Shown here piece after piece: positions 1,909 through 12,581 of a stretch of 15,363 nucleotides of DNA. Both the position numbers and the translations under genes were made by a program. The notes under the pieces are model-generated. The model saw only the letters and a list, made by a program, of their open reading frames with translations. It did no database searches and had not been told where the DNA came from. Numbering within the stretch: position 1 is the stretch's first letter; every line of letters begins with the position of its first letter. Where the stretch lies: the UHGV virus genome UHGV-0120107; one strand, 5' to 3'. The stretch is from a virus.

Positions 1909-2271
1909 TTACCTCGCTGTAACCTGCTTACTTGTACGATGACCAGCTGCGAAAAGCGCAACTTTTGGCAGGCAGACACCAGTTTCTGGTTGCTTATGTC
2001 CAAACTCATTCGCGTACACAATGGCCGCTCTCTCCAGATTGCGTCTGTATTCTTTCTGTTGCCAGATCACGTCCTGTGCCATGAACTTAATTGGCTTAGC
2101 GTCTTCTATGCGCTCAGGCGTTTCGTGAGTACCTTTAGCCTGAATCTGCGCTCTGCTTAGAGTAGGGCGGTGCAATACTTCTGAGCTTGCCGTAATCTCA
2201 TTCTGGAGCGCTGCACGACGCTCACGACGACGACCTGATGCTGAGCCATTGAAAGCTGTTCTGCGTGTCAT
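1909..2271 (-). CDS. N: N-type transcription antiterminator (120 aa)
   Basis: Strong RBS (AGGAGG) before ATG at 2271. Arginine-rich motif GRRRERRAALQ near the N-terminus, like the lambda N ARM (TRRRERRAEKQ). C-terminus ...VALFAAGHRTSKQVTAR resembles P22 gp24 (...ALYAAGHRKSKQITAR) as I recall it. Located just downstream of pL/OL. Confidence 0.8.
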   Translation of the reverse strand: MTRRTAFNGSASGRRRERRAALQNEITASSEVLHRPTLSRAQIQAKGTHETPERIEDAKPIKFMAQDVIWQQKEYRRNLERAAIVYANEFGHKQPETGVCLPKVALFAAGHRTSKQVTAR

Positions 2272-2436
2272 AGTGACCTCCTGATGAACTTTGGTGGTGT
2301 GGTAGGTGGGAGACCCATTTCGACCTGTTTCGGCCTACTTCAATTCGGCAATAGTCCCGCAGGCCTCGCCGCTTTACGTGCGACATATTCCCGTCCATGA
2401 ACCCTTCACCACACCCCAAAGTTCACTTTGGTTATT

Positions 2437-2450
2437 AGGCTTTTCAGCCT
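2437..2450 (-). promoter_or_regulatory. nutL boxB-like hairpin
   Basis: Minus-strand sequence AGGCT-GAAA-AGCCT (5-bp stem, GAAA loop) between pL and the N start. Shares the core GCTGAAAAGC with the nutR candidate at 3703..3716. No convincing boxA found next to it. Confidence 0.5.
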
Positions 2451-2518
2451 CGTAGATTCATCTCTGAATCGTTGTATATTCACCGCCATGGTGAGTAATG
2501 CGTCCTGCTGATGGCTAA

Positions 2519-2547
2519 ATAGTACGATGTGTACTTTACTGAGTCAA
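2519..2547 (-). promoter_or_regulatory. Candidate pL promoter with overlapping OL operator
   Basis: Minus strand: -35 TTGACT (plus 2542..2547), 17-bp spacer, -10 TACTAT (plus 2519..2524). The operator-like site TACGATGTGTAC (2523..2534) overlaps the spacer and -10. Confidence 0.5.
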
Positions 2548-2611
2548 TACAAAATGTTCTAAATATGGTTTAGTTTTTTATAACGCTTTGTATTTAATGG
2601 GTTTATATTTT

Positions 2612-2643
2612 GGAAAAAGAAAACCCGACGCTAAGGTCGGGTT
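2612..2643 (-). terminator. Intrinsic terminator downstream of cI
   Basis: 8-bp perfect stem AACCCGAC/GTCGGGTT (2622..2629 and 2636..2643) with a 6-nt loop, followed on the minus strand by TTCTTTTT. Lies 30 bp past the cI stop. The plus-strand flank is also T-rich, so it may act in both directions. Confidence 0.6.
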
Positions 2644-2673
2644 ATTGTTGTGTGTTTTAGAGTGGTGAGGCTG

Positions 2674-3333
2674 TTAACTAAATGTCTCTTCAGGCCACTG
2701 GCTAGCGATAACTTTCCCTACTACGGAACAGCTATCATTGCATGGAATCATTGGATATTGCGGGTTTAGTGGTTGTAGGAACACCTGACCGCTATCCCTG
2801 ATCAGTTTCTTGAAGGTAAACTCGTCACCACCAAGTCTGGCTATGCAGAAATCACCTGGCTCAACAGCCTGCTCAGGGTCAACGAGAATTAACATCCCGT
2901 CAGGAAAGCTTGGCTTGGATCCTGTTGGCGCGGTCATGGAATTACCTTCAACTTCAAGCCAAAACGCACAATCACTGGCTTTTTTGGTTGTGCTGACCCA
3001 TCTCTCCGCATCACCTTTGGTAAAGGTTCTAAGCTCAGGCGAGAACATCCCGGCCTGAACATGAGAAAAAACAGGGTACTCATATTGTTTTTTAACGGGG
3101 GCAGATGAGTATTCGCCAACAGGTGAAAATGTACCGTCGTGGTTGAATGAGACGTTATCAATACCAAGGTATTTAAACACCACACCAATCTCGTCAAGAG
3201 ATGGATGACGAGATCCGCGCAACCAGTGACCAATTCCACCCTGCGTCATACCAAGCTCTTCGGCTAACTTCTCTTGAGTTATGCCGAGCTCTTTCATTCT
3301 GGATCTAGCCAGTTCATACCATTTCATTTTCAT
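2674..3333 (-). CDS. cI: CI-type prophage repressor (HTH N-terminal domain plus LexA/S24-like C-terminal domain), hybrid immunity
   Basis: C-terminal two-thirds (...[38 protein letters not shown]... [18 protein letters not shown]) closely matches lambda CI as I recall it. The N-terminal 60 aa ([37 protein letters not shown]...) is a different HTH. Start placed at ATG 3333 (AAGGG RBS) rather than the track start at 3375. Confidence 0.85.
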
Positions 3334-3344
3334 ACCCTTATTAT

Positions 3345-3414
3345 TACGATCTGTACTAAAATCATCCATGCACAAGATGTATTTTTTGTTTGCATTCTAA
3401 AAGTACATATCGTA
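3345..3414. promoter_or_regulatory. OR operator region: two copies of a 12-bp operator-like motif
   Basis: TACGATCTGTAC at 3345..3356 and its reverse complement form GTACATATCGTA at 3403..3414, between the divergent cI and cro genes. The same motif occurs once at OL (2523..2534). Confidence 0.5.
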
Positions 3415-3418
3415 TTAT
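3390..3418 (+). promoter_or_regulatory. Candidate pR promoter
   Basis: -35 TTGCAT (3390..3395), 17-bp spacer, -10 TATTAT (3413..3418). The second operator copy overlaps the spacer and -10. cro RBS GGAGG at 3436..3440. Confidence 0.45.
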
Positions 3419-3444
3419 TGCGATATGGTTACTATGGAGGGCAT

Positions 3445-3660
3445 ATGAGCAACCTACGAAAATATCGAGAGTCACTGAATATCTCTCAAACAACACTTGC
3501 TAAGGCAGTTGGATGCACACAGGGAGCTATCGGACATTGGGAATCTGGTCGTCGCTTCCCAGACCTTAAAACATGCCGTGCTCTTGTTGCGTGCCTAAAC
3601 AAGTTAGGCGCAAAAGTCAGTCTTGATGACGTGTTCCCGCCGGAACACAAAGCCGCTTAA
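3445..3660 (+). CDS. cro: Cro-like HTH repressor (71 aa)
   Basis: ATG at 3445 with GGAGG RBS, divergent from cI. HTH motif QTTLAKAVGCTQGAIGHWESGRRFP shares TQG[GA]IGHW..G.R.P with the CI N-terminal domain. The 128-aa track ORF from 3274 is an upstream extension through the operator region. Confidence 0.75.
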   Translation: MSNLRKYRESLNISQTTLAKAVGCTQGAIGHWESGRRFPDLKTCRALVACLNKLGAKVSLDDVFPPEHKAA

Positions 3661-3670
3661 TAAGCGGATC

Positions 3671-3716
3671 CGCTCTTTGTAACAACGGACATTCGTCCTA
3701 CGTCGCTGAAAAGCGA
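3671..3716 (+). promoter_or_regulatory. nutR candidate (boxA-like plus boxB hairpin)
   Basis: CGCTCTTTG at 3671..3679 (boxA consensus CGCTCTT(T)A), then hairpin TCGCT-GAAA-AGCGA at 3703..3716, just downstream of cro. Confidence 0.5.
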
Positions 3717-3800
3717 GTTCCAAGATATCTGACCAACTAAGGCCATATGCGTTTCCACGCATACCTTTCAACTAACTATTCACTATTGGAAAATTAACAA

Positions 3801-4100
3801 ATGACACAAGCAAGTTATAGCAAGCCAACACAGCGAGAAATTGATCGCGCTGAAACTGATTTACTCATCAACCTGTCAACGCTTACCCAGCGCGGTCTGG
3901 CAAAGATGATTGGCTGTCATGAATCGAAGATAAGCAGAACGGACTGGAGGTTTATTGCTTCGGTCTTGTGTGCTTTTGGAATGGCATCAGACATCAGTCC
4001 GATTAGCAGGGCTTTTAAGTATGCGCTTGATGAAATCACCAATAAAAAACGCCCGGTGTGCAAGACCGAGCGTTCTGAACAAATCCAGATGGATTTTTGA
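3801..4100 (+). CDS. cII: CII-like transcriptional activator (99 aa)
   Basis: C-terminus ...TNKKRPVCKTERSEQIQMDF matches lambda CII (...TNKKRPAATERSEQIQMEF) as I recall it. Gene order cro-cII-O fits. Confidence 0.8.
   Translation: MTQASYSKPTQREIDRAETDLLINLSTLTQRGLAKMIGCHESKISRTDWRFIASVLCAFGMASDISPISRAFKYALDEITNKKRPVCKTERSEQIQMDF
3810..3823 (-). promoter_or_regulatory. Candidate CII-binding site (TTGC-N6-TTGC) of a pRE-like promoter
   Basis: Plus strand GCAAGTTATAGCAA, which is TTGC-N6-TTGC on the minus strand, inside the first codons of cII and oriented toward cro/cI as for lambda pRE. Confidence 0.4.
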
Positions 4101-9736: not shown

Positions 9737-9921
9737 ACGCCACAATTCAAACGATACCAGAACTGCTTATACAGGCACGAGGCAATCAGACCGAAGTGGC
9801 GAGGATGCTTTCCTGCGCAAGAGGAACAGTGCTCAAGTACAACCGAGACAGAAAAGGCGAGCGTCACGTAATAGTTAACGGCGTCCTGATGGTCAAACAG
9901 GGCAAGAGGGGAAGACGATGA
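9733..9921 (+). CDS. ninH: NinH-like protein (62 aa)
   Basis: ...TIPELLIQARGNQTEVARMLSCARGTVLKYNRD... resembles lambda NinH (...YGNQTEVARRLKCSRGTVRKY...) as I recall it. Sits immediately upstream of Q. Confidence 0.7.
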   Translation: MNATIQTIPELLIQARGNQTEVARMLSCARGTVLKYNRDRKGERHVIVNGVLMVKQGKRGRR

Positions 9922-10541
9922 GACTCGAAAGCGTAGCTAAATTTCATTCGCCAAAAAGCCCGATGATGAGCGACTCACCACGGGCCACGGCTTCTGACTC
10001 TCTTTCCGGTACTGATGTGATGGCTGCTATGGGGATGGCGCAATCACAAGCCGGATTCGGCATGGCTGCATTCTGTGGTAAGCACGAACTCAGCCAGAAC
10101 GACAAACAAAAGGCTATCAACTATCTGATGCAATTTGCACACAAGGTATCGGGGAAATACCGTGGTGTGGCAAAGCTCGAAGGAAATACTAAGGCAAAGG
10201 TACTGCAAGTGCTCGCAACATTCGCTTATGCGGATTATTGCCGTAGTGCCGCGACGCCGGGCGCAAGATGCAGAGATTGCCACGGTACAGGCCGTGCGGT
10301 TGATATAGCAAAAACAGAGCAGTGGGGGAGAGTTGTCGAGAAAGAGTGCGGAAGATGCAAAGGCGTCGGCTATTCAAGAATGCCAGCAAGCGCCGCATAT
10401 CGCGCTGTAACGATGCTAATCCCAAACCTTACCCAACCCACCTGGTCACGCACTGTTAAGCCGCTGTATGACGCTCTGGTGGTGCAATGCCACAAGGAAG
10501 AGTCAATCGCAGACAACATTTTGAATGCGGTTACACGTTAG
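9918..10541 (+). CDS. Q: Q late-gene antiterminator, lambda type (207 aa)
   Basis: Full-length match to lambda Q as I recall it (MRLESVAKFHSPKSPMMSDSPRATASDSLSG...), followed by a lambda-type PR'/qut region. Confidence 0.9.
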   Translation: MRLESVAKFHSPKSPMMSDSPRATASDSLSGTDVMAAMGMAQSQAGFGMAAFCGKHELSQNDKQKAINYLMQFAHKVSGKYRGVAKLEGNTKAKVLQVLATFAYADYCRSAATPGARCRDCHGTGRAVDIAKTEQWGRVVEKECGRCKGVGYSRMPASAAYRAVTMLIPNLTQPTWSRTVKPLYDALVVQCHKEESIADNILNAVTR

Positions 10542-10583
10542 CAGCATAATTGCCACGGATGGCAACATATTAACGGCATGATA

Positions 10584-10612
10584 TTGACTTTTTGAATAAA
10601 GTTGGGTAAATT
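10584..10612 (+). promoter_or_regulatory. PR' late promoter with qut region
   Basis: -35 TTGACT (10584..10589), 17-bp spacer, -10 TAAATT (10607..10612), 43 bp downstream of Q. Sequence closely resembles lambda PR'. Confidence 0.7.
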
Positions 10613-10619
10613 TGACCCA

Positions 10620-10811
10620 ACGATGGGTTAATTCGCTCGTTGTGGTAGTGAGATGAAAAGAGGCGGCGCTTACTACCGATTCCGCCTAGTTGGTCACTTC
10701 GACGTATCGTCTGGAACTCCAACCATCGCAGGCTGAGAGGTCTGCAAAATGCAATCCCGAAACAGTTCGCAGGTAATAGTTAGAGCCTGCACAACGGTTT
10801 CGGGATTTTTT
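10620..10811 (+). ncRNA. 6S-like late leader RNA ending at the tR' terminator
   Basis: About 190 nt from the predicted PR' start to a strong terminator: 10-bp stem ATCCCGAAAC/GTTTCGGGAT (10754..10763 and 10797..10806) followed by TTTTTT. Confidence 0.6.
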
Positions 10812-11086
10812 ATATCTGCACAACAGGTAAGAGCATTAAAGAACTGGCAAAGAGCTTAACGGTCTGCGAAAGCATTTCTTAGTGGCACAACTGGCCGGTA
10901 CAACTGAGTGCTCTTTCCGGTGTGGTGAATGCGCAGGCTGATGCGCGCAGGAGAGCTTCGGAAGAACAAGGTGCCTGTATACAAGCCGGAGATCAGCGCC
11001 GGCCACCACAGCCAAATCCACCCAGAGCAAAACCGTTGTTCATCCTTACCATTCCCTCAGTATTTTGGACTACAACCCTCAGCCCA

Positions 11087-11200
11087 TTTTTTAAAGCGTA
11101 CTTCCACCAAGAACTAGACCTAACCAACTCATTGCTGACACTCTGTGGATACGGTTGTCTAGTGCGCTTTAAAAAAGAAAACCCAGCATCAATGGCTGGG
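11087..11200. repeat. Nested inverted repeats plus a minus-strand terminator-like hairpin between tR' and S
   Basis: 12-bp perfect inverted repeat TTTTTTAAAGCG (11087..11098) / CGCTTTAAAAAA (11165..11176) encloses a 7-bp inner repeat ACTAGAC (11113..11119) / GTCTAGT (11157..11163). Adjacent hairpin CCCAGC-N7-GCTGGG (11182..11200) is followed on the minus strand by TTTTCTTTTTT. Confidence 0.4.
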
Positions 11201-11363
11201 CTTCGTGATATGAGCGGCATGTATTGTTGGCGCAATCCACGCCTGATTTGCTCATGAATGCGGTCACGAACAAACCCGTTACAAATCAACCGTAACCCGG
11301 ATTTGTTCAAGCGACCATATCCATAATTCCTAATTTGAACAGATCCCCTTCTGGGGGTAAGAC

Positions 11364-11687
11364 ATGAAGATGCCAGAAAAACATGACCTGTTAGCTGCCA
11401 TTCTCGCGGCAAAGGAACAAGGCATCGGGGCAATCCTTGCGTTTGCAATGGCGTACCTTCGCGGCAGATATAATGGCGGTGCGTTTACAAAAACAGTAAT
11501 CGACGCAACGATGTGCGCCATTATCGCCTGGTTCATTCGTGACCTTCTCGACTTCGCCGGACTAAGTAGCAACCTCGCTTATATAACGAGCGTGTTCATC
11601 GGCTACATCGGTACTGACTCGATAGGTTCGCTTATCAAACGCTTCGCTGCTAAAAAAGCCGGAGTAGAAGATGGTGGAAATCAATAA
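11364..11687 (+). CDS. S: Holin S, lambda type (107 aa, dual-start motif MKM)
   Basis: Near-identical to lambda S as I recall it ([64 protein letters not shown]...). GGGGG RBS. Confidence 0.9.
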
Positions 11688-12147
11688 TCAACGTAAGGCG
11701 TTCCTCGATATGCTGGCGTGGTCAGAGGGAACTGATAACGGACGACAGAAAACCAGAAATCATGGTTATGACGTCATTGTTGGCGGAGAGCTATTCACTG
11801 ATTACTCAGATCACCCTCGCAAACTTGTCACGCTAAACCCAAAACTCAAATCAACAGCAGCCGGGCGCTACCAGCTTCTTTCCCGTTGGTGGGATTCCTA
11901 TCGTAAGCAGCTTGGCCTGAAAGATTTCTCTCCGAAAAGTCAGGACGCTGTTGCGCTGCAGCAGATTAAGGAACGTGGCGCTTTGCCGATGATTGATCGC
12001 GGTGATATTCGTCAGGCTATCGACCGTTGCAGCAATATCTGGGCTTCACTGCCGGGGGCTGGTTATGGTCAGTTCGAGCATAAGGCTGACAGCCTGATTG
12101 CAAAATTCAAAGAAGCTGGCGGAACGGTCAGAGAGATTGAGGTATGA
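11671..12147 (+). CDS. R: Endolysin R, lambda-type lytic transglycosylase (158 aa)
   Basis: Matches lambda R as I recall it ([49 protein letters not shown]...). Start overlaps the S 3' end as in lambda. Confidence 0.9.
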
Positions 12148-12581
12148 GCAGAGTAACCGCGATTATCTCCGCTCTGGTTATCTGCATCATCGTCTGTCTG
12201 TCATGGGCTGTTAATCATTACCGTGATAACGCCATTGCCTACAAAGAGCAGCGCGATAAAGCCACATCCACAATCGCTAACATGCAGAAGCGTCAACGTG
12301 ATGTAGCAGAACTCGACGCAAGATATACAAAGGAACTTGCTGATGCTAACGCGACTATCGAAAGTCTCCGTGCTGATGTTTCTGCTGGGCGTAAGCGCCT
12401 GCAAGTCGCCGCCACCTGTGCAAAGTCAACGACCGGAGCCAGCAGCATGGGCGATGGAGAAAGCCCAAGACTTACAGCAGATGCTGAACTCAATTATTAC
12501 CGTCTCAGAAGTGGAATCGACAAGATAACCGCGCAGGTTAACTACCTGCAGGAATACATCAGGACGCAATGCCTTCGATGA
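12144..12581 (+). CDS. Rz: Rz spanin, inner-membrane subunit (145 aa)
   Basis: N-terminal 30 aa match lambda Rz ([31 protein letters not shown]...); the rest is divergent. ATGA overlap with the R stop. Confidence 0.85.
12337..12528 (+). CDS. Rz1: Rz1 spanin, outer-membrane lipoprotein subunit, embedded in Rz in the +1 frame
   Basis: ORF wholly inside Rz in another frame. Signal-peptide-like N-terminus with lipobox-like LLGVSAC followed by a Pro-rich segment ([14 protein letters not shown]). The true start may be an internal Met. Confidence 0.7.

Follow-up and report, generated by a model that had tools for sequence, protein, structure and literature searches.

The N proteins of lambdoid phages and their boxB RNA hairpins are textbook models of peptide-RNA recognition and are widely used as tethering tools; to our knowledge, structures have been solved for the lambda, P22, and phi21 pairs only. 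N proteins are intrinsically disordered (PMC8632103). The lambda boxB loop is a GNRNA pentaloop (GAAAA or GAAGA) that, according to a passage in PMC12027372 relaying Legault 1998, takes the fold of a GNRA tetraloop by extruding its fourth base. In the P22 boxB loop, GACAA, the C is looped out and touches His7 and Arg11 of the N peptide (PMC12550061). The subject of this report is the N/nut system of UHGV virus genome UHGV-0120107, whose 15,363 nucleotides (nt) were analyzed as a single stretch, here called the window. Both of its candidate boxB hairpins have a GAAA loop; since the lambda and P22 pentaloops each extrude one base, this loop corresponds to either pentaloop minus the extruded base.

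Two further described systems lie closest to this locus. At H-19B nutR, a spacer hairpin and a boxB hairpin have been described, both of which are protected by N with NusA and NusG, and the tR1 downstream of it is a Rho-dependent terminator (PMC3526286). In Salmonella phage epsilon34, the N-terminal 27 residues of N are divergent, which led Villafane et al. (2008, PMC2629481) to predict a novel BoxB specificity. The window is the early region of a lambdoid prophage followed by late genes, and with high confidence its N gene and nut sites form the early antitermination module of an Escherichia coli prophage, with an N protein of a “GAAA tetraloop” class and nut sites to match. From sequence comparison, N and both boxB hairpins appear to belong to this epsilon34-type class, which is distinct from the GACAA classes of HK97/H-19B and of P22. 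The class had already been noticed in the epsilon34 prediction, the system is an ordinary N/nut module, and the locus hardly changes the basic picture. It nevertheless draws attention to a large natural class with a true GNRA tetraloop boxB, which includes the N proteins of many Shiga-toxin (Stx) phages.

The probable nut sites

The elements of the module are as follows, with the arginine-rich motif of N abbreviated as ARM.

1909-2271, minus strand: N antitermination gene, 120 residues, first gene of the pL operon, with an AGGAGG Shine-Dalgarno sequence 6 nt upstream (open reading frame list)
2164-2256, minus strand: ARM specificity patch, N codons 6-36, with the class motif G9-S-A-S-G-RRRERRA-A-L-Q-N24 at 2200-2247
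2437-2450, minus strand: nutL boxB, RNA AGGCU-GAAA-AGCCU, a stem of 5 base pairs (bp) with a GNRA tetraloop, 62 nt downstream of the predicted pL start
2451-2470, minus strand: nutL spacer, with a hairpin GAUUCA-GAGA-UGAAUC at 2455-2470, then CUACG at 2451-2455 (fold)
3671-3685, plus strand: nutR boxA, CGCTCTTTGTAACAA, with an exact CGCTCTT[AT] within it
3687-3702, plus strand: nutR spacer, with a hairpin GGAC-AUUC-GUCC at 3687-3698 and the conserved CUACG at 3698-3702 (fold)
3703-3716, plus strand: nutR boxB, RNA UCGCU-GAAA-AGCGA, the same 14-mer as the “putative NutR - boxB” of epsilon34 (NC_011976)

An initial annotation of the window had placed two hairpins, each with a 5-bp stem and a GAAA loop, where nutL and nutR are expected. 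Its coordinates, strands, and folds agree with those found here: AGGCUGAAAAGCCU at 2437-2450 on the minus strand follows the predicted pL start, UCGCUGAAAAGCGA at 3703-3716 on the plus strand lies between cro and cII, and each folds as a 5-bp stem closed by GAAA. The nutL hairpin has a folding energy of -7.4 kcal/mol (z = -3.1 in a 38-nt context) and still forms when the whole 258-nt pL leader is folded. The shared core proposed in the same annotation fits both sites, but this 10-mer, GCTGAAAAGC, is not significant alone, with three matches in the window at one mismatch or fewer against 1.6 expected. The real shared motif is longer. The 17-nt CTACGNNGCTGAAAAGC has exactly two copies in the window, which are divergent and fall at the two boxB hairpins (0.02 expected; 0 of 200 shuffles reach two copies). 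Boxes resembling boxA are likewise statistically uninformative by themselves. The weight of evidence sits on position and extended context. A scan of the entire window with Rfam at gathering thresholds matched no family and gave no independent support.

The stems show compensatory change. The outer two pairs are A-U/G-C at nutL and U-A/C-G at nutR, and in a set of eight distinct nut sites from the window, epsilon34, mEp234, locus L007, and P22, pairing holds in all 40 of 40 cells. Covariation is seen in the outer two pairs, with four and two pair types, and the inner three, GCU/AGC, are the same throughout. Further compensatory stems at the tetraloop sites listed are UG/CA, AG/CU, CG/CG, UC/GA, UA/UA, AU/AU, CA/UG, and GC/GC. 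The nutL boxB is identical to that of L007, of L010, and of E. coli CP53, and the sole difference between the nutR boxB and that of H-19B/HK97 is the missing C of the loop.

Almost no credence can be given to the alternative that the hairpins are terminators, RNase sites, or chance palindromes and that the true nut sites lie elsewhere. The hairpins are indeed short (14 nt), their 10-mer core is not statistically unusual, and each spacer holds another small hairpin. Yet no T-run follows either boxB hairpin, a terminator scan calls neither, the 17-nt motif is far from chance, and their positions correspond by homology to nut sites annotated, or used in experiments, in mEp234, epsilon34, P22, and H-19B. 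The spacer hairpins, that of nutL with its GAGA loop included, were rejected as boxB candidates because they are not the same at nutL as at nutR, nor from phage to phage, and because the loop of the H-19B nutL version is not GNRA. The two GAAA hairpins are thus very probably the boxB elements of nutL and nutR.

The N protein

N matches the Pfam family PF25694 (N_peptide) over residues 2-120, with 68.4 bits against a cutoff of 27.9, and phrog_271 “anti-termination protein N-like” (E = 2e-36). A sequence search of the PDB with N returned chance matches only, with E above 0.3. The protein is 84% identical to the 127-residue N of the mEp234/HK97/933W/H-19B type, 81% to the 120-residue epsilon34 gp43, 40% to P22 gp24, and 31% to lambda N. 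The basic run RRRERR occupies residues 14-19 within the full ARM, GSASGRRRERRAALQN, and the protein follows the epsilon34 type over its first 27 residues (MTRRTAFNGSASGRRRERRAALQNEITA versus MTRRTTFNGSAAGRRRERRAALQNAVTA).

The initial annotation had described N as a chimera of a lambda-like ARM and a C-terminus like that of P22 gp24, paired with boxB sites of its own sequence. A lambda/P22 hybrid acting on a boxB unique to this phage is very unlikely, even though the resemblance at each end is real. Residues 6-12 of lambda N also read RRRERRA. Over the longer ARM core, RRRERRAALQ against RRRERRAEKQ (lambda residues 6-15), 8 of 10 positions agree, among them the Gln that never varies in the class and that stands opposite lambda Gln15 in the alignment. 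At the other end, 16 of the last 21 residues are identical to those of P22 gp24. However, a single Pfam family spans the protein, and P22 gp24 aligns with N at both ends, so the P22-like C-terminus is a family trait rather than a graft. At the DNA level, 9 of 30 positions in the ARM core are not those of lambda, five of them synonymous third positions within RRRERRA, and the flanks are unrelated; the lambda likeness therefore does not stem from recent exchange, and a recent lambda origin of the ARM was rejected. Lambda Trp18 has no counterpart in N; the residue in that register is Ile26, at a position that is variable across the tetraloop class. RRRERR cores also exist in natural P22-type ARMs that retain a GACAA boxB. 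When N is aligned with lambda and P22 N, a check that the initial annotation proposed for the ARM, a lambda-like core and a P22-like end emerge, but the closest full-length relatives are the HK97/H-19B-type and epsilon34 proteins, and the ARM patch groups with epsilon34-type sequences. The boxB is not private to this phage either, and P22-like is the commonest C-terminus of the class. On these alignments, N is a full-length member of the P22/HK97/H-19B N family and not a lambda/P22 hybrid. Its ARM core, which resembles that of lambda most closely, may nevertheless be meaningful for the mode of binding.

Comparison with described N/nut systems

Epsilon34 gp43 (NC_011976) has the same 120 residues and the same ARM, GSA[AS]GRRRERRAALQN. 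The phage shares with the window the boxB core GCUGAAAAGC after CUACG, the nutR spacer hairpin, and an identical nutR boxB 14-mer. The window differs in that its N is closer to the HK97 type outside the ARM, its leader is of the HK97 type, the outermost pair of its nutL stem is A-U instead of C-G, and its host is E. coli.

H-19B, HK97, 933W, and mEp234 encode N proteins of the same family with a nearly identical body, and they have the same leader and the same region downstream of nutR. Their nut architecture is also that of the window (boxA, spacer hairpin, CUACG, boxB), including a nutL that lacks a canonical boxA, and H-19B nutR/tR1 is the experimentally studied homologue of the window nutR (work of Neely and Friedman, 1998 and 2000, and of the Sen laboratory, PMC3526286). 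In contrast, the HK97/H-19B-type N is seven residues longer (127 residues) and combines the ARM RRRERLKAKALANGVLAREEA with a GACAA pentaloop, whereas the window combines RRRERRAALQNEITA with GAAA. The window N falls outside the HK97/H-19B/933W class, since its ARM region matches mEp234 at only 56 of 114 nt and both loops lack the C.

Lambda shares the overall logic, the gene order, the ARM core RRRERRA-x-x-Q, the U-A closing pair of boxB, and a similar leader stem. It differs in the low identity of its N, the lack of a match between the window N and the Pfam lambda-N family, the C-terminus, and the lower boxB stem; in addition, the window spacer holds a hairpin and the window nutL has no boxA. 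The window N is not lambda N proper, as it pairs with a 4-nt loop rather than GNRNA, ends in a P22-like C-terminus rather than …GKSIPLI, and has Ile26 in the register of Trp18.

P22 gp24, for which there is a nuclear magnetic resonance structure (1A4T), is homologous over its full length, with a similar C-terminus (LP.VAL[YF]AAGHR.SKQ[IV]TAR) and an identical inner boxB stem (GCU/AGC) and closing pair. Its ARM is AKTRRHERRRKLAIERDT, its boxB loop is GACAA, and P22 nutL has a canonical boxA. By its ARM and boxB, the window is not of the P22 gp24 type, as the two hold only the C-terminal module and the inner stem in common.

The 90-residue N proteins of Stx phages (YYZ-2008, Stx2 phage 1717, AP005153, and others) belong to the tetraloop class, with the ARM AASRRRARRANLQS. 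Their nutL boxB is UGGCU-GAAA-AGCCA, and their nutR boxB, UCGCU-GAAA-AGCGA, is that of the window. They differ from the window in the much shorter body of N and in their nutL, which has a proper boxA, GCTCTTTAAACAA, and another spacer hairpin.

Pairing of the arginine-rich motif with the boxB loop

Across about 200 related loci, the association between ARM type and boxB loop is perfect. In the protein search, loci with an RRRERRAALQN ARM have a GAAA boxB at nutL in 13 of 13 cases, and at nutR in each case where the sequence extends that far. Loci with the RRRERLKAKALANG-type ARM (HK97/H-19B) have GACAA at nutL in 70 of 71, no site being found in the remaining one, and at nutR in 65, again wherever the sequence reaches; their nutL boxB is identical to the P22 nutL boxB GCGCUGACAAAGCGC. 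P22-type loci (RRHERRRK ARM) have GCGCU-GACAA-AGCGC upstream of N in 50 of 54, and a GAAA boxB in none of the 54, with any of three C-terminal modules.

The 17-nt motif CTACGNNGCTGAAAAGC is carried by at least 120 IMG/VR contigs, in about half of those listed as a divergent pair 1.2-3.5 kb apart. Among the matches listed, 66 nutL-like copies precede 36 distinct N proteins of 88-121 residues, which were collected with an open reading frame filter that would equally have let HK97-type or P22-type ARMs through. Of these 36 proteins, 35 contain RRR[EA]RRAx[LVM]Q[SN], and the other has Leu for Ala and Thr for the final Ser/Asn. The class motif is G-[ST]-[AS]-[AS]-x-RRR-[EA]-RR-A-x-[LVM]-Q-[SN], in which the Gly, five Arg, and Gln are invariant in these 36. 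The window N fits it (G9 S A S G RRRERRA A L Q N24), and the window boxB sequences fit NN-GCU-GAAA-AGC-N'N' after CUACG at both nutL and nutR. The boxB sites are thus matched to each other and to the ARM of N, as the initial annotation held, but they are shared with epsilon34, many Stx phages, and the IMG/VR contigs above.

The same pair of ARM and boxB occurs in different backgrounds, namely epsilon34, E. coli CP53, L010, and the window. Among the matches listed, C-termini of the tetraloop class are P22-like (the commonest) or lambda-like, …GRQIHAVQKMRGKSIPLI. As the pairing of loop and ARM stays constant while the C-termini vary, ARM and boxB travel together while the rest of N is shuffled. 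By their sequences, “chimeric” N proteins are the norm in such phages. N proteins are modular more generally: one ARM type may be found with up to three unrelated C-terminal modules in proteins of 88-121 residues (P22-type loci L087-L166; tetraloop-type loci L167-L286). These modules are P22-like (…AAGHRKSKQITAR), lambda/phi21-like (…KLSSKPLI or …GKSIPLI), or end in …GKSIPAYYD.

Several points weigh against this account of the module and of its specificity class. The specificity is proposed solely from co-occurrence, many of the loci are near-duplicates, so that independent lineages are far fewer than loci, and either ARM type may recognize both GAAA and GACAA loops. In the sites compared, no change is seen in the inner three stem pairs or in the U-A closing pair; covariation therefore fits a UGAAAA hexaloop closed by 4 bp as well as a tetraloop closed by 5 bp. 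Finally, nutL lacks a recognizable boxA, as in the HK97/H-19B-type leader, and NusB/NusE may or may not act there.

Mosaic structure of the early left region

Identities along the minus strand, 5' to 3', are given below, with mEp234 as the HK97-type reference.

2512-2451, pL start to before boxB: mEp234 60/62; L010 53/62; epsilon34 54/62
2450-2437, boxB of nutL: mEp234 10/15; L010 and L007 14/14
2436-2272, N leader: mEp234 163/165; epsilon34 67/169
2271-2257, N codons 1-5: mEp234 14/15; L010, L007, and epsilon34 15/15
2256-2164, N codons 6-36 (ARM): mEp234 56/114 with a 21-nt indel; L010 (IMG/VR) 92/93; epsilon34 82/93
2163-1986, N codons 37-95: mEp234 176/178; epsilon34 145/178
1985-1909, N codons 96 to stop: mEp234 53/77; 57-60/77 to all others

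These comparisons resolve the predicted tetraloop specificity into three small patches in early-left DNA that is otherwise 99-100% HK97-like: N codons 6-36, the nutL boxB, and the deletion of the loop C at nutR. N is therefore a mosaic, as the initial annotation stated, but its parents by sequence are an HK97-type backbone and an epsilon34-type patch (codons 6-36) rather than lambda and P22.

The nutR flanks are HK97-like. The cI-cro-nutR block (2674-3792) is 93% identical to Stx phages that are natively of the tetraloop class, and nutR from boxA through boxB is identical to that of the Stx1-converting phage AP005153, with two differences in a 74-nt context. Megablast found the ARM patch in 2 of 5,426 complete E. 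coli genomes, one of which is CP53, where the same ARM and a GAAA boxB accompany another leader. Among sequenced phages, 18 of the 20 records with the patch are Salmonella phages. A plausible history is that an HK97/H-19B-like phage gained a tetraloop-type immunity/nutR module and that short recombination patches then matched N and nutL to it.

The mosaic bears on the possibility that the difference between tetraloop and pentaloop is neutral, that the pairing reflects linkage and ancestry only, and that both N types use both boxB types, with the nut and N assignments unchanged. With no more than about 170-240 nt between nutL and the ARM codons, linkage alone could explain some of the co-occurrence; one nucleotide separates the two loops, RRRER is common to both ARM types, and many of the sampled loci are near-identical. 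This explanation is nonetheless unlikely. Among the matches listed, nutR, 1.2-3.5 kb away across a highly mosaic immunity region, always has the same loop type as nutL, and the ARM motif persists in 36 distinct N proteins whose bodies and C-termini vary widely. In the window itself, the leader is HK97-type at 163 of 165 positions, yet the boxB and the ARM patch that flank it are both of the other type, which implies that recombination has separated all but the matched elements. Since the extruded C of the P22 loop contacts His7 and Arg11 of the N peptide (PMC12550061), its absence should matter.

A functional pairing of ARM and loop leads to a more specific proposal, which is evenly poised between right and wrong. 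The tetraloop ARM would constitute an orthogonal specificity that reads a GNRA loop without an extruded base in a lambda-like mode, in a protein family in which P22 and HK97/H-19B N read a GACAA pentaloop that extrudes its third base, and the prophage would be a natural “specificity transplant”, in which about 31 codons were swapped, the 14-nt nutL boxB was replaced, and 1 nt was changed in the nutR loop. If so, the likely trigger was the gain of the tetraloop-type cI-cro-nutR immunity module. As an unusually clean natural experiment, the locus narrows the predicted specificity determinants to about 31 codons and 1-5 nt per boxB in otherwise identical H-19B/HK97-type sequence. It would offer a convenient system for how ARM peptides distinguish a tetraloop from a pentaloop with an extruded base, and it could show whether the extruded base matters for NusA recruitment.

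The 3' end of N is a separate observation. Codons 96 to stop (…KVALFAAGHRTSKQVTAR, 1909-1985, minus strand) are unlike every relative examined, at 53-60 of 77 nt, and directly follow 178 nt that are 99% identical to mEp234. This diverged end is one more short patch of the mosaic and falls in the part of N expected to touch RNA polymerase.

Proposed mode of action

A mechanism can be modeled on general work with lambda N (PMC8632103) and on studies of H-19B (PMC3526286). The transcripts from pL and pR would carry nutL and nutR, respectively, each with a spacer hairpin, CUACG, and a boxB whose GAAA (GNRA) tetraloop sits on a U-A closing pair, and nutR would also carry boxA. The N-terminal ARM helix, GSASGRRRERRAALQN, would bind the boxB tetraloop on the nascent RNA, and the HK97/H-19B-type body and P22-like C-terminus of N would engage NusA, other Nus factors, and RNA polymerase. 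At the boxA of nutR, NusB/NusE may take part. The modified polymerase would then resist termination and pass tR1 (3717-3800), tL1, and later terminators.

boxA, spacer hairpins, and the N leader

The exact sequence CGCTCTT[AT] (core CGCTCTTT) occurs in the window only at 3671-3678, 25 nt before the nutR boxB. A pattern scan found no boxA-like element between the pL start (about 2512) and the nutL boxB, where just ACAACG remains. The initial observation of boxA only at nutR is borne out: a canonical boxA 5' of boxB is present at nutR and absent at nutL, as it is at the H-19B/HK97-type nutL. One candidate was considered at the latter. CGCACTACT, annotated in GenBank as the “putative nutL boxA” of mEp234 (L001, EF120460, 980-988), was rejected as boxA: only 4 of its 9 positions fit the consensus, and its lambda equivalent, CGCACTGAC, lies upstream of the true lambda boxA. 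The window counterpart of this mEp234 sequence is CGCATTACT, at about 2491-2499 on the minus strand. The mEp234 annotation is probably wrong, and the HK97/H-19B-type nutL seems to lack any boxA core.

At both nut sites a small spacer hairpin is followed by CUACG and boxB, a layout common to H-19B, mEp234/HK97, and epsilon34, and the nutR spacer hairpin is identical in H-19B nutR. Neely and Friedman reportedly termed the H-19B spacer hairpin a “reducer” in 2000 and found boxA, NusB, and S10 to be dispensable for H-19B N. We take the nutL spacer hairpin of the window to be the equivalent of this reducer.

The 258-nt pL leader folds with -85.9 kcal/mol (z = -4.0) and includes the following element.

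2284-2426, minus strand: N leader with a long-range 19-bp stem, 5' arm at 2408-2426 and 3' arm at 2284-2303

The stem ends immediately 5' of the N Shine-Dalgarno sequence. The lambda N leader has similar arms in the same place, CUUUGGGGUGUGUGAUAC ... CACACACCACCAAAG (the 5' arm also as CUUUGGGGUGUGUG); in lambda, this stem serves as an RNase III site in the control of N translation. By analogy, the window stem may have the same function. The window stem competes with a local hairpin, CCAAAG-UGAA-CUUUGG (2416-2431), which mEp234 shares and epsilon34 has with one base changed; P22 has a similar one.

Organization of the surrounding locus

The order of elements, which is classical for lambdoid phages, is N, the 165-nt leader, nutL, pL, a terminator-like hairpin, cI, pR, cro, nutR, and cII. 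The features beyond N and the nut sites are these.

2519-2547, minus strand: pL, TTGACT-17-TACTAT, overlapping operator oL1 (promoter scan)
2622-2643, both strands: bidirectional terminator-like hairpin after cI, between cI and pL/oL (terminator scan), in the position of “Timm” in the mEp234 annotation
2674-3333, minus strand: cI repressor (LexA family), open reading frame with 93-98% DNA identity to cI of Stx phages and several coliphages
3389-3418, plus strand: pR, TTTGCA-18-TATTAT or TTGCAT-17-TATTAT, overlapping oR1
3445-3660, plus strand: cro, open reading frame of 71 residues; matching phages annotate cro
3717-3800, plus strand: interval from nutR to cII, the expected tR1 region, with a hairpin AUGCGU-UUCC-ACGCAU at 3747-3762; nearly identical to HK97 and mEp234
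3801-4100, plus strand: cII, open reading frame, in the homologous position in mEp234 and HK97

The predicted pL transcript starts at about 2512 with ATCAGCAGGACGC, like those of lambda, P22, and mEp234, to judge from the homology of the start region. Operators oL1 (2518-2537) and oR1 (3400-3419) form a 20-nt inverted repeat with 90% complementarity. By analogy with the described systems, the interval 3717-3800 would be the tR1 that N must override.

Over positions 1850-2660, the stretch compared, the window and the E. coli Z142-1 chromosome are 100% identical. In the corresponding RefSeq record (NZ_CP159700.1, 1154822-1155632), both features under the N/nutL region are called “hypothetical protein”, and N is unnamed. 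Antisense to the 3' end of cII, a strong terminator-like hairpin of 12 bp followed by a T-run (4046-4076, minus strand) lies where lambda and P22 have their oop RNA terminator. The late open reading frames at 9918-12581 (207 residues at 9918-10541; 107, 158, and 145 residues at 11364-12581) presumably correspond to lambda Q, S, R, and Rz. The Q protein of epsilon34 is 98% identical to lambda Q (PMC2629481). The early and late antitermination specificities appear to be drawn from different phage lineages, in the window as in epsilon34.

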